From positions 24,846-88,845 of the forward strand of contig CALRHH010000003.1 of the NCBI GenBank assembly GCA_943359395.1: 64,000 nt of DNA, in the 5' to 3' direction. Under the pieces are notes generated by a model. That model saw only the letters and a list, made by a program, of their open reading frames with translations. It was not told the DNA's origin and ran no database searches. Positions within the stretch are counted from its first letter, which is position 1. The number at the start of each line of letters is the position of its first letter. A program made the position numbers and the translations under genes. This stretch comes from Candidatus Nomurabacteria bacterium. Lineage in GTDB: Bacteria > Patescibacteriota > Minisyncoccia > Phycocordibacterales > UBA2100. Positions 27,352 to 62,231 of this stretch are shown piece by piece.

Positions 27352-28554
<1,203 letters not shown>

Positions 28555-28937
28555 ATAATTTAATTCCTTAAAACTAATAATCGGGATAAATCCCTCATAT
28601 CATGTCTTCGCTCGGATGAAGTGTAAGTGAAACTTCCACTTCAGTTCCTCGCTAGCCACGATAATTTATAATCTGCGCCAACGCTTTGGATGAGGCGAGA
28701 GCCTCGGTGCTCGGCGTATTCCTTGCGGGAGATATCCTTCGTTTAAAGCGGTTCGCTAGGCCGCACGGTGGAAATCCCGGACAAAATAATACGCACAGAG
28801 CGTGCGTCGGGACATAGTAGCAGAAGCCGCTTTTGCGTCAAGCTTTTGTGCGCGTCCAGTACATTTGGCACTCTTTGCAGGATGGTGTAATGCGAAAACT
28901 CGAGGTCGGAAACACCGGGGACGTAAAGATGTTTGTA

Positions 28938-30179
28938 TCAAAACCATCGCTTGAAAACATCCAACAGGCAGCCGAAGAACGTCGAGCAGTTTGGAGCATT
29001 CCCGGAAAAAAGATATTCCCCTTTGTCCACGAGTTGGTCCGGCCCTTTTTCGACTTCTGGAATTATGGAATGCGCGAGGATGTATGGGTCATGACGGATT
29101 CCTGTGACCATCCACGAGATCTCTTTGCCCGGCAGACCGCCGCCCACGACAAACGTATTGTCCTTCACTTCGTGCTTCACGTGCAGTTCCGGCATCGGCG
29201 CATCGATCGGGCGCAAGAAATACTGGAAGTCTTTGTTGAGCGCCTCGAAATATGCCGGCAAACGTATGGTCGCCATACCATCTTTCCCGATGACGGCGGT
29301 GCCCGCGTACTCATTGAGCGCATCCGGCGATTCGACGAATGAGTGGTACAGCAGCTCGTTTGCCGGATCCGCAGGATTGTCGATGACGAACGTCCCCGAT
29401 CCTTTGGTGAGATTACTGGAGACCGTTATGTTGCCAACGACCGATACCGCTTTGTTGATGCTGAGGTTGCGTGAAGAGGAGGGTAGGGTCCACGTAATTG
29501 AAACAGAGCCGGCGGTGCCACCTGAGCCGTTAGAGCCATCAGACGTGTATCCACCGCAAAACGGGTCTATGGAACCCGCAGGACTCCCGGCACCTCCGCT
29601 ACCGCCCGAACCAACGGTCACTGTGATATTTTGGCCCGTCGTGGGTGCACCAGCACCACCCGATGCCCACGTCTTGACCGCCTTTCCACCCGCGCCACCG
29701 GAACCACCAGAACCGCCTGAGGCCTGAGAGCCATTTCCCCCTGCTCCGCCACCCCCGCCGCCACTCCCTCCACCAGTAGTATTGGTGTCGCCCCCCGATG
29801 CGGTGCCGCTAGAGCCAGCGCTCCCGTTTTGGGATGCATATTGCCCCCCCGAACCGCCACCTCCGCTCCCACCGCTTACAGTGACCGAAGAGGCGAAAGA
29901 ACTTGCTCCACCACTTCCACCAGAACCGCCCAGAGCATAGGGATTAGTTGCGCTATTGCAGTATTCCCCTGAGCTAAGCCAGGCGGAACCGCCCGCTCCT
30001 CCTGCCCCGCCACCCCCTGCGCCGTTTACCGTCACCGTGAGCGAGCCGTACGAGGGAACGGTGAATGTGCCTGATGATGTGAAGTTCTGGGAACCAGCAA
30101 AGGCAAGCGCAGGCAATGCAAAGATGGCGAATGAGGCAAGCGCCAAGACTCCTAATCGATGTAGCGGCGTTATTTGCAT
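28938..30179 (-). CDS. Secreted Gly/Ser-rich protein with a conserved ~170-aa C-terminal domain (paralog 1 of 3). N-terminus resembles 'glycine-rich domain' proteins of tail-fibre type.
   Basis: Signal peptide …ALPALAFA. Then GSQNFTSSGTFTVPSYGSLTVTVNGAGGGG… poly-Gly/Ser run. C-terminal block FVIDNPADPANELLYHSFVESP…ISWMVTGIRHDPYILAHSIIPEVEKGP shared with the two neighbouring genes. Confidence 0.5.
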   Translation of the reverse strand: MQITPLHRLGVLALASFAIFALPALAFAGSQNFTSSGTFTVPSYGSLTVTVNGAGGGGAGGAGGSAWLSSGEYCNSATNPYALGGSGGSGGASSFASSVTVSGGSGGGGSGGQYASQNGSAGSSGTASGGDTNTTGGGSGGGGGGAGGNGSQASGGSGGSGGAGGKAVKTWASGGAGAPTTGQNITVTVGSGGSGGAGSPAGSIDPFCGGYTSDGSNGSGGTAGSVSITWTLPSSSRNLSINKAVSVVGNITVSSNLTKGSGTFVIDNPADPANELLYHSFVESPDALNEYAGTAVIGKDGMATIRLPAYFEALNKDFQYFLRPIDAPMPELHVKHEVKDNTFVVGGGLPGKEISWMVTGIRHDPYILAHSIIPEVEKGPDQLVDKGEYLFSGNAPNCSTFFGCLLDVFKRWF

Positions 30180-30778
30180 AACGGTTCAAAGACGCACTCC
30201 CCTTTATCGAGGAGCGCGCTGGGACCCTTCTCGACTTCAGGAACGATAGGATGCGCGAGGATGTACGGGTCGTGACGGATTCCTGTGACCATCCAGCTCA
30301 CCTCGCCGCCTGGTGCACCGCCGCCGATGACGAACGCGTTGTCTTGTATCTTTTGTTTAATGTACAGATTGGGCATCGACGCGTTCATTGGGAAGAATTG
30401 ATAAGTGGAATCCTTGTTGAGTGCCTCAAAGTAATCCGGTAGTTGAATTGTCGCTTCGCCTTTTCCATCGAACTGTGCGATTCCATTGTATTGATTCAGC
30501 GTATCGGGCGATTCGACGAACGAATGGTACAGGAGTTTGTTGGCAGGGTCCGTCGGATGGTCGATGACGAAGGTGCCTGCACCTTTGGAGATTGAGCCTG
30601 TGATATCAAACGTGCTCTTCGTAAGCAGGTTTGCATTGATGGTGAGCGCCGCTCGCGCCACAGGAGTGAGGGCGATAATCATGACAACGCCAACTCCGAG
30701 AATAAAGTATCGTCTCATACTATTTTTGTTTCGTGCTCGTCGCATACAATTCCGGATGAATGTACATGCCCTGCGCAT
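30170..30778 (-). CDS. Short paralog (2 of 3): signal/TM anchor plus the conserved C-terminal domain only, no Gly-rich region.
   Basis: FVIDHPTDPANKLLYHSFVESPDTLNQY…VSWMVTGIRHDPYILAHPIVPEVEKGP aligns block for block with the C-termini of the flanking genes. Confidence 0.5.
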   Translation of the reverse strand: MRRACTFIRNCMRRARNKNSMRRYFILGVGVVMIIALTPVARAALTINANLLTKSTFDITGSISKGAGTFVIDHPTDPANKLLYHSFVESPDTLNQYNGIAQFDGKGEATIQLPDYFEALNKDSTYQFFPMNASMPNLYIKQKIQDNAFVIGGGAPGGEVSWMVTGIRHDPYILAHPIVPEVEKGPSALLDKGECVFEPLCK

Positions 30779-32210
30779 ACGGGGCGCCCGCGCCTTTCTG
30801 TACTTCCGGAATTATTGGATTCGCGAGGATGTACGGGTCGTGCCGCACGCCGGTCACCATCCAGCTCACCTCTCCGCCAGGGCTCCCGCCCGCGATGGTG
30901 AAAACCGGAGTGCCTAACAATCCGAGAAAGCGCGGTTTTACCTTAACCGAAAGATGCAAATCCGGCATCGCAACCTCAATTGGCGTTGCGAAATAGCGGA
31001 AGTCTTTGTTGAGCGGCAAAAAATAGGTTGGCAGAGATATTGTCGCCTTGCCGGCATCATCGAGCGTCGCGCGGCCGACGTACACATTCATCACCTCCGG
31101 TGATTCCACGAACGAGTGGTAGAGCAATTTGTTCTTCGGGTCGAGCGGATGGTCGATAACGAACGAGCCTGAGCTCTTGGAGAGCGCGCCGGTGATATTG
31201 AGGTCGCCGTTGATAGTAACGGCCTTGTTGATAGTGAGTGTGGGCGACGCCGTCGTGAAGTTCTGAATGCTTCCGTATCCGGTGCCGTTGGAGTTGGTCG
31301 CATAGGCGCGTACGTAGTATGTGGTGCCCGTCGACAACGATGAGACGGCCCCGCTAAAAGAGCCTGTCCCCGATTTCGAGCCGAGCGTCGTGGTCGCAAT
31401 GACGGTCGTGAGCGTCGAAACAGTACCGTAAGCAAATCCGTGTTGTGTCGCGTCCGAACCGTTGGTCGCGGCAATGGAGCCGTTGAGCGTCGCACTGTTT
31501 ATCGTCACACCCGAAGCGGCCGAGGTGGTCACGGTGGGTGCAGCGGGGTCCGTCCACGTAATGGAGACGGAGCCCTTGGTGCCTGCATTGCCAGCGGTGC
31601 CCGACGCTGCACACCCCGCGCTTGTCCCTCCGCCGCCAGGGGTCCCTCCGTTTCCGACGGTGACCGTTATGCCCGCGCCCGGGGTAAGTTGGCCTACGGA
31701 GTAGGTTTTTACCGCTTTCCCTCCGGCAGCGCCATTCCCGCCAGTGCCGCCGCCGGGAAGTTGTTGACAATCTGGGTTTGCTGTAAAACCGCCGCCACCG
31801 CCGGTGCCGCCGCCTGCCCCTGCCCCTGTAGTGTTCGTGTCGCCGCCAGAAGCAGTGCCGCTGGAACCGTTGGAACCGGTACTTCCGGCACTAGAACCGC
31901 CGCCGCCATCTTGCGTGCCGCCGCCACCGCCGGTGCCGAAGCCGCCGCCGTTACCGATAACGTTGCCGTTGAAAGACACGGTTCCTCCTGATGTCCCCGC
32001 AGAACCATCCCCGCCGTTACCATAGAAAATATATGCCCCTCCACCGCCGCCTCCACCGCCGCCACCAGACCCGTTCACCGTGACGGTGAGCGACACGTAC
32101 GTTGGCACAGTAAAGGTGCCGCTTGAGGTGAAATTCTGCGAACCAGCAAAGGCAAGCGCAGGCAATGCGAAAAGTAGCAGCATTAGAAAAAGCACTCGCG
32201 CTTTCGGCAT
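30720..32210 (-). CDS. Secreted Gly/Ser/Thr-rich protein with conserved C-terminal domain (paralog 3 of 3). Longest copy.
   Basis: Signal peptide region nearly identical to paralog 1 (LPALAFAGSQNFTSSGTFTVP). A 29-nt identical DNA tract is shared with 30091-30119. C-terminal FVIDHPLDPKNKLLYHSFVESP…VSWMVTGVRHDPYILANPIIPEVQKG. Confidence 0.5.
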   Translation of the reverse strand: MPKARVLFLMLLLFALPALAFAGSQNFTSSGTFTVPTYVSLTVTVNGSGGGGGGGGGGAYIFYGNGGDGSAGTSGGTVSFNGNVIGNGGGFGTGGGGGTQDGGGGSSAGSTGSNGSSGTASGGDTNTTGAGAGGGTGGGGGFTANPDCQQLPGGGTGGNGAAGGKAVKTYSVGQLTPGAGITVTVGNGGTPGGGGTSAGCAASGTAGNAGTKGSVSITWTDPAAPTVTTSAASGVTINSATLNGSIAATNGSDATQHGFAYGTVSTLTTVIATTTLGSKSGTGSFSGAVSSLSTGTTYYVRAYATNSNGTGYGSIQNFTTASPTLTINKAVTINGDLNITGALSKSSGSFVIDHPLDPKNKLLYHSFVESPEVMNVYVGRATLDDAGKATISLPTYFLPLNKDFRYFATPIEVAMPDLHLSVKVKPRFLGLLGTPVFTIAGGSPGGEVSWMVTGVRHDPYILANPIIPEVQKGAGAPYAQGMYIHPELYATSTKQK

Positions 32211-32256: not shown

Positions 32257-34398
32257 TTACTTCCTGCTTGCGATAACGAGGTCGGCAGCACTCTTCGGGA
32301 CAATCGCGTAGTGGCTGAATTCGAGGTTGGGGACGCCGCGGCCTTCGGTAAGGGATCGGAGCTGTGTGGTAAATCCAAACAATTCTGAAAGCGGCACTTT
32401 GGCCGTGATGACGCGTGCTTGTCCGCGCTCGCCCATCGCCTCGATAGCACCACGCTTCGAATTAATCATGCCGGTCACGTCACCCATGAACTTCTCAGGG
32501 ACAACGACTTCCAATTTCATGATTGGTTCGAGCAATACCGGCTTCGCTTTTTGCATAGCCTCTTGCATCGCGTTGATAGCCGCGAGCTTGAATGCGATTT
32601 CAGATGAGTCTACGTCGTGATACGAGCCGTCGTACAGCTCGACGGAAATGTCGACGACGGGGAATCCCGCTTGGATGCCACGCTCCATCGCTTCGATAAG
32701 ACCCTTTTTTACCGGCTGGATGTATTCCTGCGGAATGACGCCTCCTTTGATGTTGTTGATGAATTCGAAATGGTCTTCGCGGTCCACGTTGTTTTTGAGT
32801 TTCTTGCCTTCCTCCAACGGCTCCAATGGCTTGATGCGAATCTTGACGTGACCGTATTGGCCGCGACCTCCTGTCTGCTTGATGTGTTTGTATTCGACAT
32901 CCGCGGTGCCTTGAATGGTTTCGCGGTACGCGACCTGCGGCTTGCCCGTCGTTGCCTGCACGCCGAATTCGCGCTTCATGCGGTCAACGATAATTTCCAA
33001 GTGGAGCTCGCCCATTCCCGATACGATGGTTTCCATCGTTTCAGGGTCCGACTTGATGCGGAAGGTCGGATCTTCGTCGGAAAGCTTCGAGAGTGCCATA
33101 CCCATTTTCTCTTGGTCTGCTTTTGTGTTTGGCTCGATGCGCATTGAGACCACTGGCTCTGGGAATACGATTGATTCGAGTGCGATTGGGTGCGCGACGT
33201 CACAGAGAGTATGGCCGATTTTCACTTCTTTCATACCGACAGCTGCAGCGATTTCTCCTGCATAGACCGTCTTCACATCTTCACGCTTATCAGCCTGCAA
33301 GCGCACGATGCGTCCGACGCGTTCCTTCTTGTTGTTGGCAGAGTTGTATACCGTATCGCCGGCTGTGAATGTGCCTGAGTACACGCGGAAGAACGAAAGC
33401 TGTCCCACGAATGGGTCGGTCTGGATTTTGAAAACGAGTGCAGCGAAGGGAGCCTCATCGGATGCAGGACGAGTCTCTTCTGCGCCTGTATCCGTATTGA
33501 TGCCTTTTGATTCCGGCATGTCCTTCGGGCACGGGAGGTAATCCACGACCGCATCGAGTACGAGCTGCACGCCTTTGTTTTTGAGTGATGAGCCCGTGAG
33601 TACGGGGAAGATTTTGTTGGCGATGACACCCTTGCGAAGTGTCTTGCGGAGTGTTTCGAGTGGAATCTCTTTTCCATCCAAGAATTCAGCCATGACCGCA
33701 TCGTCATTCTCGACAATTCTCTCCACGAGCTCTGCGCGATACTTGTTCGCATCGGCCATCATGTCTGCGGGAATGTCATATGCAATGACATTTTTTCCCA
33801 TCTCTCCTTCAAATTTGTATGCCTTCATTGAGAGCAGGTCGATGATTCCCTCGAATTTATCTTCAAGTCCTATTGGGAGTTGGAATCGAACTGCCTTGTT
33901 TGAAAGCCGGTCCAAGATGCTTGCGTATGACTTTTCAAAAGATGCACCCGTGCGGTCGAGCTTGTTGATGTAGCAGATGCGGGGCACATTCGCCTCTTCT
34001 GCGTAACGCCAGTTGGTCTCGGATTGCGGCTCGACGCCGGCGACGCCGTCGAAGACGACAACTGCACCATCAAGCACGCGCATTGAACGCTTCACTTCTG
34101 AAGTAAAGTCGATGTGTCCAGGGGTGTCGATGATATTGAAACGGACTTTTTCGGAGAGGTCGGTGCCCATGTACGAGGGGTTCCAGAAACACGTGATGGC
34201 GGCGGCGGTGATGGTGATACCGCGCTCGCGCTCTTGTTCCATCCAGTCGGTGACTGTGTTGCCTTCGTGTACCTCACCGATTTTGTGCGACTCGCCTGTG
34301 TAATACAAAATACGCTCGGATGTGGTCGTTTTGCCCGCATCCACGTGCGCCACTATCCCAAAATTTCTCACCTTCTCCAACGGGTAATCTCTACTCAT
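32257..34398 (-). CDS. fusA: Elongation factor G.
   Basis: NFGIVAHVDAGKTTTSERILYYTG, DTPGHIDF and other full-length EF-G hallmarks. 713 aa. Confidence 0.95.
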   Translation of the reverse strand: MSRDYPLEKVRNFGIVAHVDAGKTTTSERILYYTGESHKIGEVHEGNTVTDWMEQERERGITITAAAITCFWNPSYMGTDLSEKVRFNIIDTPGHIDFTSEVKRSMRVLDGAVVVFDGVAGVEPQSETNWRYAEEANVPRICYINKLDRTGASFEKSYASILDRLSNKAVRFQLPIGLEDKFEGIIDLLSMKAYKFEGEMGKNVIAYDIPADMMADANKYRAELVERIVENDDAVMAEFLDGKEIPLETLRKTLRKGVIANKIFPVLTGSSLKNKGVQLVLDAVVDYLPCPKDMPESKGINTDTGAEETRPASDEAPFAALVFKIQTDPFVGQLSFFRVYSGTFTAGDTVYNSANNKKERVGRIVRLQADKREDVKTVYAGEIAAAVGMKEVKIGHTLCDVAHPIALESIVFPEPVVSMRIEPNTKADQEKMGMALSKLSDEDPTFRIKSDPETMETIVSGMGELHLEIIVDRMKREFGVQATTGKPQVAYRETIQGTADVEYKHIKQTGGRGQYGHVKIRIKPLEPLEEGKKLKNNVDREDHFEFINNIKGGVIPQEYIQPVKKGLIEAMERGIQAGFPVVDISVELYDGSYHDVDSSEIAFKLAAINAMQEAMQKAKPVLLEPIMKLEVVVPEKFMGDVTGMINSKRGAIEAMGERGQARVITAKVPLSELFGFTTQLRSLTEGRGVPNLEFSHYAIVPKSAADLVIASRK

Positions 34399-34452
34399 AT
34401 TTTGATGCGGGGTTAGCGACGACCTGCCCCGTAGTCAACGCGCAGCGTTGTA

Positions 34453-34504
34453 CTACTGGGGTGCCGAAATTTCGTACTTTTTCGAGTGGGTAATCGCGTG
34501 ACAT
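34453..34504 (-). pseudogene. Relic of a fusA 5' end: encodes MSRDYPLEKVRNFG, identical to the first 14 residues of EF-G, then diverges and stops. Lies ~100 bp upstream of the real fusA start.
   Basis: Reverse complement of 34463-34504 = ATG TCA CGC GAT TAC CCA CTC GAA AAA GTA CGA AAT TTC GGC, versus real fusA ATG AGT AGA GAT TAC CCG TTG GAG AAG GTG AGA AAT TTT GGG. 15 nt differences, all synonymous. Confidence 0.5.
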
Positions 34505-34672
34505 ATCTTTAAATAAAAACGCCGCAAACGGCGTTGCACTAATGTAACGGAAATCGGAGTGAAAAGCAATCTTCTCGACACACTCAAGCCTATACTATAT
34601 AAATCCGATAGGACTGGTCCTGGTCCTGCACTACCAAATCCCTGTACAACCAAGACATAAAGGAGGAGACCG

Positions 34673-35215
34673 GTGAATATTCGAAACCCGCCTACAGTGC
34701 GCCTGTTCCCGAAACAAGCCGCTTATAATGCGTTCGACCTGCTTGCTTACGCGAATCTAGAATTCGGCGATGACGTCCCGCCCCTTCCTCTGCCCCCGAT
34801 GCTGATGCTTCACCGCATCATCGACATCAACGAGGTCGGCGGCAAGGACGGCAAAGGTTGCGCCGTTGCCGAATACGATGTACGGCCCGACGACTTCTAC
34901 TTCAAGTACCACTTCAAGAACAACCCGCTTATGCCCGGGGTCTATGGCCTCGATAGCGTGCTCCAGCTTGCGGGCTTCATGTTGGCGTGGACGGGCCCCC
35001 GCGGCGACGGTATGGCGGTTGGTGTTGACGGAGTAAAATTCCGCAACAAGATCACCCCGGACTCCGCTACCATCCGTATCGGCGTCGAGGTCAAGCAGAT
35101 TAGGCCCGGAAAAACTTCTATTATCCGGGCTTCCGGCTGGGTCAGAGACAGCACCAAGCTTATCTCCGAGATGGATGAGGTTGTGGTCGGCGTGGTAGCC
35201 AGAAAGGCCGCGTGA
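34673..35215 (+). CDS. FabA/FabZ-like hotdog-fold (3-hydroxyacyl-ACP) dehydratase, encoded antisense inside the str operon between rpsG and fusA. GTG start preceded by AAGGAGG.
   Basis: LPPMLMLHRIIDINEVGGKDGKGCAVAEYDVRPDDFYFKYHFKNNPLMPGVYGLDSVLQLAGF fits the FabZ/FabA signature (LPHR.P.LLvDrv…g….a.k.V..ne.fF.GHFp..PvmPGVl.iEa.aQ). Strong SD AAGGAGG 6 nt before GTG. Confidence 0.6.
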   Translation: MNIRNPPTVRLFPKQAAYNAFDLLAYANLEFGDDVPPLPLPPMLMLHRIIDINEVGGKDGKGCAVAEYDVRPDDFYFKYHFKNNPLMPGVYGLDSVLQLAGFMLAWTGPRGDGMAVGVDGVKFRNKITPDSATIRIGVEVKQIRPGKTSIIRASGWVRDSTKLISEMDEVVVGVVARKAA

Positions 35216-35287
35216 CGCGCTTGTGCGTGACGCACAACGCGGACGGGGAATGTTTTCCCGCCCGCGTTTGCTATTTATACTGAGAAA

Positions 35288-35749
35288 TTACCACGCGAAG
35301 TGGGCGAACGCTTTGTTTGCCTCAGCCATTCTGTGAGTCGTTTCTTTCTTAGTGACCGCGGCCCCTTCACCCTTATGCGCAGCTTGAATTTCAGCGAGAA
35401 GACTCTCGTGCATTGGCTTGCCCTTGGTACCTTCGGCAGCTTCTACAATCCAGCGCATACCGAGTGCCATTTTGCGAGCCGGATTCACTTCGCGCGGAAC
35501 CTGATAGTTGGCACCACCGACACGGCGTGAGCGTACTTCTACGGCAGGAGAGGCTTTTTCGAGCGCCTCTTCAAGAATGAGAAGGGGGTCCCCTTCTTTC
35601 TTCAATTCATCCATCACCCTGTAGACGATTTTGCGGGCAGTATCTTTTTTTCCGCACTCCATTACGTAGTTAATGAGCTTGGCAACCTTGAAAGAGCCGT
35701 AGACTTCGTCCGGCTGAGGCTGTTTTCTATTTTTGATAGGGCGTCGCAT
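35288..35749 (-). CDS. rpsG: 30S ribosomal protein S7.
   Basis: Full-length S7-like sequence (…KFINYVMECGKKDTARKIVY…ANYQVPREV…). Sits immediately after rpsL. Confidence 0.9.
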   Translation of the reverse strand: MRRPIKNRKQPQPDEVYGSFKVAKLINYVMECGKKDTARKIVYRVMDELKKEGDPLLILEEALEKASPAVEVRSRRVGGANYQVPREVNPARKMALGMRWIVEAAEGTKGKPMHESLLAEIQAAHKGEGAAVTKKETTHRMAEANKAFAHFAW

Positions 35750-35754
35750 AAAAA

Positions 35755-36171
35755 TTACTTGGCAGCTTTCGGTTTCTTTGCACCGTAGTTCGAACGGCCA
35801 CGACGGCGTTTCTCTACACCCGTAGCATCCAATTTTCCGCGAACGATAGTGTAGCGTACGCCGATGTCCTTCACGCGACCGCCGCGGATAAGGACAACTG
35901 AGTGCTCTTGCAGATTGTGGCCTTCTCCTGGGATGTAAGCGGTAACTTCCATGCCGTTGGTGAGGCGTACGCGGGCGATTTTACGGATTGCAGAGTTTGG
36001 TTTGCGAGGCGTCTTTGTAGTAACACGGGTGCAAACGCCGCGCTTAAAAGGAGCTGCATAGAATGAAGGTCGATTCTGGAGCGTATTGAAACCGCGCGAA
36101 AGCGCGATGGTCTTCGTGCGCCACGTCTTTTTGACTCGACTCTTGCGCGTAAGCTGATTTATCGTAGACAT
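35755..36171 (-). CDS. rpsL: 30S ribosomal protein S12.
   Basis: [12 protein letters not shown]…PKKPNSALRK-like core ([19 protein letters not shown]…[24 protein letters not shown]). Confidence 0.9.
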
Positions 36172-36757: not shown

Positions 36758-37447
36758 GACACCCGTAATTGCGTGGGCGATTCCGTATACGAGGGTGCCA
36801 AAGGCTCCTCCCAAAACAACGATGAGGAGGAGAACGATTCCGAAACCGAGGAAGGGATTTTGTTCCATGCGGTCGCGAAGTGCATCGTACCCAAAACTCT
36901 TCGGGAGAAGGCTCGACAAAATCTTCGAACCGTCGAGTGGGGGTACGGGGATAAGGTTAAGAAGCATGAGCGAGACGTTGATAGCGACGATGTAGAGGAG
37001 AACACCTGCTGTGTCGGGGAAAATATTCAGGCGTATGACGAGACTCGTAATGAGTGCAATCACGAGGTTTGATGCGGGCCCAGCCGCAGCCACTATGGCT
37101 TCCCCCCAGCGAGGTGAACGAAAAAGGTTGTAGGGATTATAGGGAACGGGCTTCGCCCAGCCGAAAATAAAACCCCCGGGAGAGAGTGCGCAAAGGACAG
37201 GGAGAAGGATCGAGCCAAAAACGTCGATGTGCGGAATCGGATTGAGGGTGAGACGCCCCGCATATCGGGCGGTCGGGTCTCCGAGCGCGTCGGCCGCGAC
37301 GCCGTGCATCACCTCGTGGATGATGACCGAGAAGATGATTATCACTACTACGAAAACGGTGTCGAGAAATTCCATATGTTGAGAAATACTAACATATAGT
37401 TGTTTCCGTTGCGTTTGCTTCCACGCAGTGCTAAGATGCCGCGACAT
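36755..37447 (-). CDS. Site-2 protease (peptidase M50) family membrane metalloprotease.
   Basis: HEVMHGVAADALGD (HExxH in TM) and …NPIPHIDVFGSILLP… (LDG-like region) are typical of M50/SpoIVFB-type proteases. Multiple TM helices. Confidence 0.6.
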   Translation of the reverse strand: MSRHLSTAWKQTQRKQLYVSISQHMEFLDTVFVVVIIIFSVIIHEVMHGVAADALGDPTARYAGRLTLNPIPHIDVFGSILLPVLCALSPGGFIFGWAKPVPYNPYNLFRSPRWGEAIVAAAGPASNLVIALITSLVIRLNIFPDTAGVLLYIVAINVSLMLLNLIPVPPLDGSKILSSLLPKSFGYDALRDRMEQNPFLGFGIVLLLIVVLGGAFGTLVYGIAHAITGV

Positions 37448-41575: not shown

Positions 41576-43114
41576 CTACTCAACAACAGAGCTCGGCGAA
41601 TGAGTCAGCCGATTATACCTCCAAGAAAAAATCACCGCGTATACGAGCAGGAGCCACCATGCGCTAAAGGCAGAAATCGAGACGGCGGCAAACGGAAGCG
41701 CGGCGAAGAATTTGGCGACTCCGATAATGTACGCGAGCAGAAGGTATGCAGGAAACGCGAGCGGGACAGCGTACGAGCCGGCAATCATGCCGCCTACCGC
41801 TGCAACAAACGACGCGAACATCGCAAGAGGTACCGCCACGAGGGCGAGGAGGTTTGCGGGGAGTGCGACCAATGAGAGCAATCCGTTCTGATAGAGCAGC
41901 AGAGGCAGCACCACAAGCTGCGTCGCAAAAGTCGAGGAGACAATCTCGCGCACGCCGAACCGCTCCGTGAGCCAAAGCAGCCGTTCAGTGAATACAGGCG
42001 TAAAAGAAATGAGTCCGAGCGTTGCAAGCGTAGACAATTGGAAGCTCGGGTCAAACGCAAGCTCGTATGGATTCCACAACACCATCAGTGACGCCACGAC
42101 TCCGAGGATGCGCCCCGCGAGGTAGGTGCGTCCCGTGGCACGCGCCAACACCGCGACAAAAGCCATCGCTCCGGCGCGCACGGCACTTGCTGCTCCGCCC
42201 GACATGAGCATGAAAAAGAGCACGGCCAATCCGCTCCCGCCGAACTGGAAGACTCTTGGCAGTGACGTGAGCACATATGAAATCGCATTGATAACGACAG
42301 TTATGTTGTGTCCTGAAAGAACAACCATGTGAATGAGCGATGCACGCTGAAAGTCTGCAGACAGTTCTTTGCCTATAGAGCGCTTGTCCCCCACCGTAAT
42401 CCCGCCTGCGAGTCCCGCCTCGGGTTCCGGGAGTACGGCAGTTTCGCCGCTGAGGTACTCGTGCTTAACGCGTATCGCCACGGCTTTCAGGACGTTTCCC
42501 CGATTACCCTCCGTCTTTTCTATCTGCGCGAAAGCGAGCTGATAGCCGATACCATCCTTTGCAAGATATTCTGGATAGCGGAACTGCCGACCGAACCCCG
42601 TATCAAAAGCCTCGGGGAGTCTGAGCGTGCCGACGGCGCGCACATTGTCGCCATACAAGACCTCCGTATGTGGAGGGACCGACGCAATCACACCCGCACT
42701 TACTGGAGTGGTGCTGCTTGCCCCGTTAGAAGCACCGCTTCTAACGGGGCTTGCGACAACGAGCCGCTCGACGTGCAGAGAAATTCGGACTCCAGTGTCG
42801 CGTACATCTGGTTCCGCTGTCACATATCCTTCTAGTGTTACAGGGCTATCGAGCCGTTCGGTAAGTGAAGCATCTCCTTCAAGAGTCGCTGCATGCATTC
42901 GCGCAACTCCCCCCGCGAAAGCAAGAAATACCACTGATACGATGATGAGCGGTTTCTTTCGTGATACATCGAGGAAAGCGAGTGCGAGCATTGCCGTCGC
43001 AAGAAGGAGCCCGAAAGCAACCACCGAGAGACCGAGTGGCGTAAACGAACGCACGAAAACACCTATCAGAAATCCCGCGACGAGTGTCCAGAGAACCTCC
43101 GTCCTCATGGACAC
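41576..43114 (-). CDS. ComEC/Rec2-like DNA-uptake channel protein, N-terminal (DUF4131-like) plus polytopic 'competence' membrane domain, without the lactamase domain.
   Basis: Long polytopic membrane domain with …LHMVVLSGHNITVV… and the Ala/Leu-rich TM bundle typical of PF03772. The MBL-fold domain is encoded separately at 39103-39960. Confidence 0.45.
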   Translation of the reverse strand: MSMRTEVLWTLVAGFLIGVFVRSFTPLGLSVVAFGLLLATAMLALAFLDVSRKKPLIIVSVVFLAFAGGVARMHAATLEGDASLTERLDSPVTLEGYVTAEPDVRDTGVRISLHVERLVVASPVRSGASNGASSTTPVSAGVIASVPPHTEVLYGDNVRAVGTLRLPEAFDTGFGRQFRYPEYLAKDGIGYQLAFAQIEKTEGNRGNVLKAVAIRVKHEYLSGETAVLPEPEAGLAGGITVGDKRSIGKELSADFQRASLIHMVVLSGHNITVVINAISYVLTSLPRVFQFGGSGLAVLFFMLMSGGAASAVRAGAMAFVAVLARATGRTYLAGRILGVVASLMVLWNPYELAFDPSFQLSTLATLGLISFTPVFTERLLWLTERFGVREIVSSTFATQLVVLPLLLYQNGLLSLVALPANLLALVAVPLAMFASFVAAVGGMIAGSYAVPLAFPAYLLLAYIIGVAKFFAALPFAAVSISAFSAWWLLLVYAVIFSWRYNRLTHSPSSVVE

Positions 43115-61038: not shown

Positions 61039-61139
61039 TTTGCGGCGACCGCCGTTTGCAGGTAAACCCCGTTAGATAATCCAGCAATCTTTGGTTTCAA
61101 AAACTCGACGAACGTTATCTAACGGGGTAAACTCCTCCG

Positions 61140-62231
61140 ATGCAATTACAGAACGTGAAAGTAACTCGCGACGATGCTGCGTGGGAGACGGAAGTGAAAG
61201 CCGAGATACCCGCGGAGGTGCTTGCGCATTACCGCACCGCGGCATTGAAAGAAATTAAGAAGACCGCGAAATTGGACGGCTTTCGTCCGGGCAAGGCTCC
61301 CGAAGAAAAGATTATCCAAGTATACGGAGAAAGTGTGATACTGCGTGAAGCTGTACAACATGCCATTGAGCACGAGCTCCCCGAGCTTCTTGCGGCTCAA
61401 AAGCTACTTATTATAGAATCTCCACGCGTGACAACCGACACGCCAGAACTGGGCAAGCCTGTTACCTTCACCGCACGTGCCGCACTTGCTCCTTCAATCG
61501 AATTACCAGATTACAAAAAGATTGCGGCGAAACACACCGCAGAAAAAGAAAAGGTCGTCGTCACGGACCAAGAACACGCACAAGCACTCACTCACTTGCG
61601 CAGAGAGCGCTCCCGCATCGACAAGATAGAAAGTGGTACCGACGCTCAGAAAGCTGCGGAAGAATCGCGTGCAGCAGAGGAGAAAGACCTCCCGGAGCTC
61701 GATGACGCATTCGTCCAATCACTTGGATACGAAAGCGCAGAGAAATTCGCCGAGGTACTCCGCGTAAACATAAAAACTGAAAAAGAAATGCAGGCGCAAG
61801 AGAAGCGACGGGCCCTTATTCTCGATGAACTCGTGAAGGACTCCAAGATATCCTACCCGTCGGCGCTACGCGAGTACGAACTCGACGACATGGAAGCCCG
61901 GCTTAAGGACGACCTCACGCGCATCGGACAGACGCTCGAGGCGTACTTTGCACAAACTAAGAAAACCCGGGAGCAGATTCGTACTGAATGGAAGGATGCT
62001 GCCGACAAACGGGCGAAAGTCCGCCTTATACTCACCGAAATAGCCCGGAAAGAATCTATCAGCCCAGACGAGAAAGCGCTTGAACATCAACTCGAACAGG
62101 CTCGCAAGCAATACCCCGCCGCAGACGCAATAGCGCTGCGTGCGCACATCTCACACGCGATGCGCAACGATGCAACCCTACGATTTTTGGAGGGAAACGC
62201 AGAGCTGCCGAAGCACCGCCACGAACACTAG
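61140..62231 (+). CDS. tig: Trigger factor (short form; PPIase domain apparently reduced or absent).
   Basis: N-terminal ribosome-binding domain with the GFRPGKAP signature (consensus GFR.GK.P). C-terminal helical arm domain. 363 aa versus ~430 typical. Confidence 0.6.
   Translation: MQLQNVKVTRDDAAWETEVKAEIPAEVLAHYRTAALKEIKKTAKLDGFRPGKAPEEKIIQVYGESVILREAVQHAIEHELPELLAAQKLLIIESPRVTTDTPELGKPVTFTARAALAPSIELPDYKKIAAKHTAEKEKVVVTDQEHAQALTHLRRERSRIDKIESGTDAQKAAEESRAAEEKDLPELDDAFVQSLGYESAEKFAEVLRVNIKTEKEMQAQEKRRALILDELVKDSKISYPSALREYELDDMEARLKDDLTRIGQTLEAYFAQTKKTREQIRTEWKDAADKRAKVRLILTEIARKESISPDEKALEHQLEQARKQYPAADAIALRAHISHAMRNDATLRFLEGNAELPKHRHEH

Follow-up and report, generated by a model that had tools for sequence, protein, structure and literature searches.

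Small open reading frames (ORFs) inside the MIRU repeats of mycobacteria are translationally coupled, with overlapping stop and start codons, and regulatory leader or arrest peptides are known from trpL-type attenuation and from SecM, MifM and ErmCL. Gene ends are duplicated at integration sites, for instance by phage 21 and e14 in icd and by islands in the 3′ ends of tRNA genes, and homology-facilitated illegitimate recombination occurs during natural transformation. EF-G, the product of fusA, is among the most abundant and essential bacterial proteins; to our knowledge no autoregulation has been described for it, and a search of the literature found no fusA leader ORF and no dedicated leader or autoregulatory device for this gene. 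Gene regulation in bacteria of the candidate phyla radiation (CPR) is almost unexplored. Here we analyse a 64,000-nt stretch of DNA (hereafter the window) from an uncultured member of the Patescibacteria, a Candidatus Nomurabacteria bacterium, in which fusA, a gene of the str operon, is preceded by an upstream ORF that opens with a recoded copy of the first residues of EF-G, is split in frame by a small palindrome and closes inside the first codons of fusA itself. On balance, and with only modest confidence, we lean toward reading this relic of a fusA 5′ end as the start of a translated leader ORF that would be maintained by selection and coupled to fusA by termination-reinitiation.

A recoded EF-G N-terminus in front of fusA

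On the fusA strand, which is the minus strand of the window, the relic begins with an ATG at position 34504, and its first 14 codons translate to MSRDYPLEKVRNFG, identical to residues 1-14 of EF-G. The match lies in the frame and on the strand given by an earlier, sequence-only reading of this DNA, which had also recognised the identity of the 14 residues and the synonymous nature of every nucleotide difference; its count of 15 differences in 42 nt becomes 14 on recounting. The probability that 14 out of 14 random substitutions would be synonymous is ~7e-11. Two saturated synonymous encodings of this peptide would be expected to differ at 10.4 positions, with a maximum of 18, and the 14 differences observed fit this expectation [P(≥14) = 0.07]. 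The two 14-codon copies are separated by 64 nt, and the sequences upstream of the relic ATG and of the fusA ATG are unrelated, the likeness being confined to the coding part. The 63-nt spacer between the copies has no second copy in the window within 3 mismatches.

After codon 14 the fragment had been thought to diverge and terminate. Instead, an in-frame palindrome of 39 nt interrupts it and codons 15-17 then resume (ATC GTC GCT vs. ATA GTG GCG in the functional copy); removal of the palindrome restores MSRDYPLEKVRNFGIVA, that is, 17 residues of EF-G whose encoding differs from the functional one at 17 of 51 nt, always synonymously. The upstream ORF runs on to a TAG (34393-34391) that overlaps codons 2-3 of fusA (ATGAGTAG), giving an overlap of 8 nt between the two frames. 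The fusA ATG at 34398 is preceded by GCTAACCCCGCATCAAAAT, which contains no Shine-Dalgarno (SD) motif; a strong SD (AAGGAGGAG) is used by the neighbouring FabA-like gene in the same genome. When the peptide of the upstream ORF was compared with 1.84 billion representative proteins, one irrelevant match was returned, and such upstream ORFs are thus unrecorded by gene callers.

As the source is a metagenome-assembled genome, the duplicate might be suspected of being an assembly or chimera artefact, a possibility that the first reading had also raised. We give it practically no credence, since an independently assembled contig of 2.9 kb (L001; L-numbers denote the related loci compared) carries the same sequence in the identical order, and homologous modules were found in at least 10 further assemblies that come from different studies.

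The upstream ORF, its leader and its palindrome among relatives

A scan of the collection for DNA encoding the 14-residue peptide led to 72 Patescibacteria loci, and 11 distinct upstream ORFs before fusA, that of the window and 10 from related Patescibacteria, form the compared set. The palindrome type is found in eight distinct loci (the window, L022, L035, L056, L087, L089, L090 and L096), the versions in L035, L056, L087, L089, L090 and L096 having been obtained from genome loci and from a metagenome scan for the spacer motif; the module of L091 is identical to that of L087. The other types are those of L039 (27 aa), L016 (61 aa) and L064 (92 aa). All 11 ORFs begin with M-x-x-DYPLEKVRN, and residues 4-12 are invariant over at least 18 synonymous and zero nonsynonymous changes (P ~2e-12 if neutral), residues 2-3 and the tails being variable. 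Module carriers have 83-96% EF-G identity to the window, their module tails are homologous and 52-90% identical, and different palindrome classes are found in close relatives. Intragenomic conversion does not keep the relics fresh, since each differs from the functional copy of its own genome at 4-10 of 27 nt. Between the window and L089, identity is 0.92 in the leader, 0.67 in the relic, 0.70 in the palindrome, 0.60 in the tail, 0.90 in the functional 42 nt and 0.91 in the gene body.

The upstream stop falls on or right beside the fusA ATG in 9 of the 11 ORFs, and in 9 of 11, despite several indels, the two ATGs are spaced at 2 mod 3, which yields an ATGA stop/start overlap; this overlap is seen in eight related loci. 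In L022 (Kaiserbacteria), where the functional fusA 5′ end differs from that of the window at 1 of 42 nt, the upstream ORF reads MARDYPLEKVRNPAGKRYALPTGHASVANFALNI followed by a stop and ends in ATATGA on the fusA ATG. The spacing in the window is shifted by one base, and the TAG contained in AGT-AGA (fusA codons 2-3) still closes the frame; L016 and L064 have other geometries, the stop in L016 lying 13 nt upstream of fusA. An ATGA overlap needs AGY as codon 2 of fusA, and AGY is used in 10 of 11 loci with an upstream ORF vs. 20 of 68 others (Fisher p = 1.7e-4, a statistic that ignores phylogeny).

The long mimic ORFs of L064 (1304-1625) and L016 (7480-7678) share GI(V/I)AP(V/I)V...LLEN...PRFST...TGKL, and their relic reaches codon 17. 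An upstream ORF of 20 codons stands before a different gene, rpmB (ribosomal protein L28), in L028 (1851-1908, minus strand); once a 41-nt palindrome, related to that of the window, is cut out, its relic reads MARTCDITG, vs. MARVCDITG in the real protein.

The motif TTGC(T/A)TTT..GATTTCCG(C/T)TACATTA is kept upstream of fusA in many Patescibacteria loci in which the upstream genes vary. It was not flagged by a sigma-70 consensus promoter scan, and its putative promoter function (TTGCTT-17-TACATT) is assigned from conservation. It is followed by a hairpin, which the sequence-only reading had noted as a small one and which is real: on the minus strand it has 7 bp and is followed by a U-run. Compensatory changes preserve it in relatives (ACGCCC-TCG-GGCGT, ACGCGC-ACA-GCGCGT and others). 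In module-free relatives (L003, L021 and others) promoter motif and hairpin run straight into fusA: the interval between the FabA-like gene and fusA in L003 consists of TTGCTTTT...GATTTCCGTTACATTA, a short hairpin and a U-rich run, followed directly by the fusA ATG. The same elements lead into the relic ATG in the window, and the relic therefore occupies the exact fusA start position of the relatives. The conserved motif and 5′ hairpin, found whatever gene lies upstream, together with the inverted repeat between the rpsG and FabA-like genes, argue that rpsL-rpsG would be transcriptionally uncoupled from fusA, as had been proposed.

An Rfam search of 34250-34750 gave chance-level matches only (best E = 3.7 and 6.6). 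Neither mutually exclusive RNA structures nor a recognised arrest motif were found for this leader, and no known motif was seen in the peptide. A long-range helix between the relic and GGTCGTCGC, predicted in the window, was rejected as it is not conserved in relatives. The leader of tuf (28791-28841, minus strand) has the same design as that of fusA, with TTGACG...TACTAT, a short hairpin (28807-28791) and a U-rich run, and a promoter-like TTGCTT...TAAGAT (37415-37437, plus strand) lies close to the start of rpmB; the shared layout may be general for highly expressed genes in this organism.

The palindrome inside the upstream ORF belongs to a dispersed family, recognised only once a variable centre was allowed for between the conserved feet CCCC-R-GTAG ... 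CTAC-GGGG-CAGG. At least 18 distinct copies were found, at fusA 5′ and 3′ ends, at the rpmB 5′ end, in comEC and at other sites. The copy in the window forms a hairpin of -21.6 kcal/mol (z = -3.9). MAFFT aligned the palindromes out of structural register and per-sequence folds were used instead, in which 13 of 13 folded copies form one hairpin on the CCCC/GGGG foot (z from -1.8 to -7.9). Excision restores 18 EF-G residues in L056 and L096, and ...VRNFG followed by a stop in L022, L035, L087, L089, L090 and L039. Since excision restores the reading frame of the relic, the palindromes were inserted later and the relic is older; all module types have its 3′ junction, after codon 17/18, in common. 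At one site after codon 12, the second class and L039 carry a 38-nt palindrome and an unrelated 20-nt one. The palindromes of L035 and L087 are 97% identical although the fusA genes of these loci are 76% identical. Relative to the leader of L003, a clean 38-nt palindrome, differing from that of the window by 1 nt, is inserted elsewhere in the fusA 5′ untranslated region of L088 and L092-L094, and in L057, L088/L094 and L091 a palindrome immediately follows the stop codon of fusA. No target-site duplication or terminal inverted repeats were seen for the palindromes, and transposase or integrase domains were not found in the 44 of 67 window ORFs scanned.

The comEC ORF (41576-43114, minus strand) harbours a perfect 29-nt palindrome of the family, CCCCGTTAGAAGCGGTGCTTCTAACGGGG, at 42721-42749, which is read through as ...SPVRSGASNGAS... 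and looks like an in-frame insertion of the kind made by Rickettsia palindromic elements (RPEs). A long hairpin at 61067-61127, with feet CCCCGTTAGA...TCTAACGGGG, possibly belongs to the family as well, although this is uncertain; it lies 13 nt upstream of an ORF (61140-62231) that by eye looks like trigger factor (tig). A second palindrome type, CCTGCCTGCCGGCAGGCAGG, occurs in the fusA leaders of L031-L033 and L039, and in L065 (2184-2236) it lies within the apex of a hairpin with CCCC/GGGG feet, which suggests that palindromes insert into one another. Mimicry of the sarcin-ricin loop by the hairpin was looked for by eye, and none was found.

Origin and possible function of the relic

With similarity that stops at the coding boundary and synonymous sites that are saturated, the two copies appear to be the joined ends of diverged alleles, in agreement with the initial suggestion that a foreign or divergent fusA end was brought in by recombination. 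A likely route would combine one crossover in the conserved gene with one illegitimate joint between tightly packed essential genes, and DNA uptake is plausible because ComEC is encoded in the window. An ancestor of a Kaiserbacteria-like lineage would thus have recombined with a diverged fusA allele, which would have placed a new leader and new fusA codons 1 to ~18 before the gene body and stranded the resident start, with its first 17-18 codons, ~65 nt upstream; small mobile palindromes would have inserted later inside the stranded piece, here 39 nt in frame after codon 14. Target-site duplication, even followed by drift, is ruled out by similarity that ends at the coding boundary and by synonymous-only divergence, and mutagenic copying like that of diversity-generating retroelements by changes that are not adenine-specific. 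An integrase-mediated island was rejected for the fusA 5′ event, there being neither cargo nor integrase between the copies. Codon distance did not resolve which copy is foreign: the comparison of relic codons with relatives, a check proposed by the sequence-only reading, placed the relic closest to L019, L027 and L076 (3-4 differences) and the functional copy closest to L022 (1 difference) but singled out no foreign copy. Among close relatives both allele types circulate, as is seen from L088 and L093.

According to the reading that we prefer, fusA would be transcribed from its own conserved promoter motif, and the mRNA would begin with the 5′ hairpin and the U-rich run seen in the sequence. 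Ribosomes would initiate at the ancestral ATG, translate 37 codons, the palindrome included, terminate at the TAG within fusA codons 2-3 and restart at the SD-less fusA ATG by termination-reinitiation coupling. That a short peptide might be maintained as an upstream leader ORF had been mentioned early on as an alternative, and conservation in relatives now supports it. A translated and selected leader is favoured because the fusA 3′ relic of the window has decayed (only 9 of 15 residues identical) and the 5′ relic is perfect, despite tails of such low identity. Several points weigh against this reading. We infer both the translation of the upstream ORF and the reinitiation from sequence, and the reading offers no reason why the peptide sequence itself should matter. 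The whole fusA leader folds no better than shuffled sequences (z = -0.79), and, with a fusA start region predicted as mostly unpaired, ribosomes could initiate there directly. The upstream ORF is dispensable in some lineages, since L020, L071, L088 and L092-L094 have kept a palindrome and have lost, or never had, the ORF. At fusA 3′ ends (L057, L088/L094 and L091), the relics differ from the functional ends almost only synonymously, down to TAA vs. TAG; these relics are untranslatable, and synonymous-only divergence can thus arise without selection, simply when alleles of diverged genomes are joined. A repeated rather than single origin of the 5′ modules would also weaken the argument from selection.

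Much of this would suit a neutral recombination scar, a stub of the resident fusA 5′ end with an upstream ORF devoid of any role. It would have remained after a diverged allele took part in homology-facilitated illegitimate recombination or in repeated site-directed insertion, and the peptide match would be due to its origin in a functional gene and to frequent re-creation or exchange, with no part played by selection. The design of relic, palindrome and functional end recurs at the untranslatable fusA 3′ ends and at rpsG (L094), with divergence that reaches the stop codons; the arrest of similarity at the coding boundary, the mosaic patterns of identity, ComEC, the loss of the ORF in lineages such as L020 and L071 and the unpaired fusA start all speak for a scar. 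We nevertheless regard it as rather unlikely, if deserving serious attention, since DYPLEKVRN stays invariant in carriers that are up to 17% apart in EF-G and whose tails vary so widely, the junction shared by all types points to a single old event, indels have left frame and stop/start overlap intact, and the older, untranslated fusA 3′ relic of the window has decayed. A leader ORF might, more specifically, act as a homeostatic sensor of EF-G activity or ribosome recycling: restarting on the SD-less fusA AUG would increase when release by ribosome recycling factor (RRF) and EF-G is slow, or when ribosomes stall at the hairpin, so that more EF-G would be made when it is limiting. The stop/start overlap, the missing SD and the stable hairpin inside the ORF are compatible with such a device, and peptide-level conservation suggests that the nascent chain matters. 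In E. coli, RRF inactivation causes more of the ribosomes that finish an upstream ORF to read an SD-less overlapping downstream ORF (PMC9955659). A sensor is nonetheless doubtful in our estimation, given a peptide with no known arrest motif, an RNA with no conserved alternative structure and no Rfam match, and overlap geometries that vary, the window having its 8-nt overlap in another frame and L016 and L064 departing in their own ways.

The upstream copy could also be the true N-terminus of EF-G, joined to the gene body by ribosomal bypassing as in T4 gene 60 or by loss of a ~106-nt RNA segment, such that the relic codons would connect to fusA codon 15 or 18. Conservation at the protein level holds for both copies, a hairpin follows right after the putative take-off site, and Asn or Gly junction codons readable by the same tRNA are present in several loci. 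This is highly improbable, since no stop codon follows codon 12, 14 or 17 for take-off, the upstream frame is open and ends precisely on the fusA ATG, which bypassing would not require, the palindrome lies after either codon 12 or codon 14 with gaps of 80-281 nt, and no ribozyme or intron family was matched. As for the translated leader ORF that we prefer, a far-reaching and rather speculative extension, unlikely as it stands, would be that some Patescibacteria regulate abundant translation genes (fusA, and rpmB in one genome) by 'self-mimic' leader ORFs whose nascent peptide would copy the N-terminus of the regulated protein. In such an EF-G autoregulatory circuit, termination on the overlapping, SD-less start would render EF-G synthesis sensitive to EF-G/RRF-dependent recycling or to the way ribosomes translocate through the embedded hairpin.

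Neighbouring features and described systems

The opposite-strand gene between rpsG and fusA, with its GTG start and its SD (34660-34668), was confirmed in coordinates and strand, but the FabZ-like assignment made from sequence was not: the protein is FabA-like by Pfam and NCBIfam scores (PF07977, 113 bits; NF003509, 148.9 vs. a cutoff of 124), below the strict equivalog cutoff (TIGR01749, 148 vs. 238), and FabZ models fall far below theirs (TIGR01750, 42 vs. 155; NF000582, 41 vs. 113). It is ~40% alignable to E. coli FabA, with conserved catalytic His (YHF) and Asp (GLDS). Partners or domains of type II fatty acid synthesis (FabB, acyl carrier protein) were not found among the 44 of 67 window ORFs scanned. 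Homologues are rare (8 in a word-index search) and occupy the same site, antisense between rpsG and fusA, wherever the flanks are long enough. At this position in L092/L094, L089 and L003 the FabA-like proteins are only 37-60% identical to that of the window, unlike the flanking EF-G and S7, which are 94-98% identical, indicating that the cassette has either evolved very fast or been replaced by another allele; the divergent promoter region is conserved. The relic had been suggested to mark an insertion breakpoint. However, it does not mark that of the FabA-like gene, which is found at the same place without any relic in L003-L012, L088 and L092-L094, and the relic module without the gene in L022, L035 and L056; as each occurs without the other, the two are independent, the FabA-like gene having entered the rpsG|fusA insertion hot spot earlier, as a cargo of its own. 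Where rpsG and the FabA-like gene converge, the inverted repeat is probably a terminator for both; a terminator scan did not flag it because its T-run is interrupted.

A like hot-spot process is evident at the 3′ end of fusA. The fusA-tuf junction of the window holds three ORFs without Pfam matches (28938-30179, 30170-30778 and 30720-32210), one of them encoding a Gly-rich protein of 496 aa, and then the decayed relic of the fusA C-terminus. In L057, L088/L094 and L091 the fusA stop is followed by a palindrome and by a second copy of the last 5-16 codons. L094 (2025-4126 and 8340-9162; also L088) contains three relics of the fusA 3′ end, nested, and two of the rpsG 3′ end, with small cassettes in between. 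To judge by eye, the predicted products of these cassettes resemble a nucleotidyltransferase/HEPN pair, a ParE-like toxin-antitoxin pair and a secreted protein; the locus is a graveyard of successive insertions at str-operon junctions. L043 has, at ~2421-2570, a second EF-G C-terminal fragment of 50 aa, 76% identical, ~650 nt past the fusA stop (~3212).

Table 1. Coordinates of the features in the window (strand: -, minus; +, plus;., not stranded)
Feature	Coordinates	Strand	Remarks
rpsL (ribosomal protein S12)	35755..36171	-	Pfam Ribosom_S12_S23, E = 1.9e-34
rpsG (ribosomal protein S7)	35288..35749	-	Pfam Ribosomal_S7, E = 1.5e-48
Inverted repeat AACGCGGACGGGGAA-TGTT-TTCCCGCCCGCGTT between convergent rpsG and FabA-like genes	35236..35268	.	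read from sequence
FabA-like hotdog dehydratase gene (180 aa, GTG start)	34673..35215	+	antisense to str genes; Pfam FabA 8e-33
fusA promoter-like motif: TTGCTT (34569-34564), 17-nt spacer, TACATT (34546-34541)	34541..34569	-	conservation
5′ leader hairpin AACGCCG-TTTG-CGGCGTT, 7 bp	34518..34535	-	followed by U/A-rich run up to the ancestral start
Upstream ORF, 37 codons, MSRDYPLEKVRNFG[TPVVQRCALTTGQ]VVANPASKYE, then stop	34391..34504	-	homologous ORFs in relatives
Relic of fusA codons 1-14	34463..34504	-	14 synonymous differences from functional copy
Palindromic in-frame insertion, 39 nt, CCCC-A-GTAGT-A-CAACGC-TGC-GCGTTG-ACTAC-GGGG-CAGG	34423..34461	-	member of the dispersed hairpin family
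Relic of fusA codons 15-17	34415..34422	-	with A at 34462: ATC GTC GCT = IVA
Short leader of the functional start, AACCCCGCATCAAAAT	34399..34414	-	homologous to module tails in relatives
fusA (EF-G, 713 aa)	32257..34398	-	TIGR00484, 1033 bits
Functional copy of the duplicated segment (fusA first 17 codons)	34398-34348	-	
Decayed relic of fusA C-terminus, GVSDLEFSHYTILQR vs. GVPNLEFSHYAIVPK	28872..28916	-	tblastn within window, E = 0.006
tuf	27352-28554		

The locus shows how compact essential operons are remodelled, with displaced gene ends persisting as recoded relics. The junctions of the str operon are hot spots for cassettes such as the FabA-like gene, toxin-antitoxin pairs and surface proteins of unknown function, and very small palindromes can insert in frame into reading frames. 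For genome annotation, such relics can mislead the calling of start codons or pass for pseudogenes or assembly errors. A conserved upstream ORF that copies the N-terminus of EF-G and ends on the fusA start is, moreover, a directly testable candidate regulatory device, and one found in CPR bacteria.

Among described systems, the coupled small ORFs (AUGA or UAAUG junctions, as for coat and lysis genes of phage GA) resemble the present arrangement in that a short ORF ends on or by an SD-less downstream start, and in that the ORF may lie within, or be extended by, a small repeated element. They differ in that the ORF found here opens with 12-18 N-terminal residues of the downstream protein in recoded form, a peptide conserved across deep divergence, and stands before an essential translation factor with its own candidate promoter. 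Regulatory leader and arrest peptides likewise have a short conserved upstream ORF, a constrained peptide and a hairpin before the regulated start, whereas the fusA leader has no terminator/antiterminator alternative, known arrest motif or SD sequestration, and its peptide mimics the N-terminus of the very protein encoded downstream.

The palindromes recall the RPEs, short dispersed palindromes that lie in intergenic regions and in frame within reading frames (PMC10969869). With these, and with transposable elements of the miniature inverted-repeat type (MITEs) and repetitive extragenic palindromic (REP)-like elements, they share dispersal, conserved feet, variable centres and in-frame insertions; RPEs measure ~150 bp vs. 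20-54 nt here, and the present palindromes show a preference for translation-gene ends and can be nested (L065). Another parallel is the duplication of gene ends at integration sites, since functional and displaced ends, coming from different lineages, differ mainly synonymously and repeated events leave nested relics, as in L094; here, in contrast, no integrase and practically no cargo lie between the copies (~25 nt without the palindrome), and the displaced 5′ copy is still the start of an ORF. Homology-facilitated illegitimate recombination, a term used in PMC6382021, would leave such stubs through one crossover and one illegitimate joint, and ComEC is present; this mechanism would apply here with a joint whose microhomology is not reconstructable. 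Set against all of these systems, what is new is the combination seen before fusA and, in L028, before rpmB: a conserved ORF that mimics the start of its own downstream gene and is split by an in-frame mini-palindrome.

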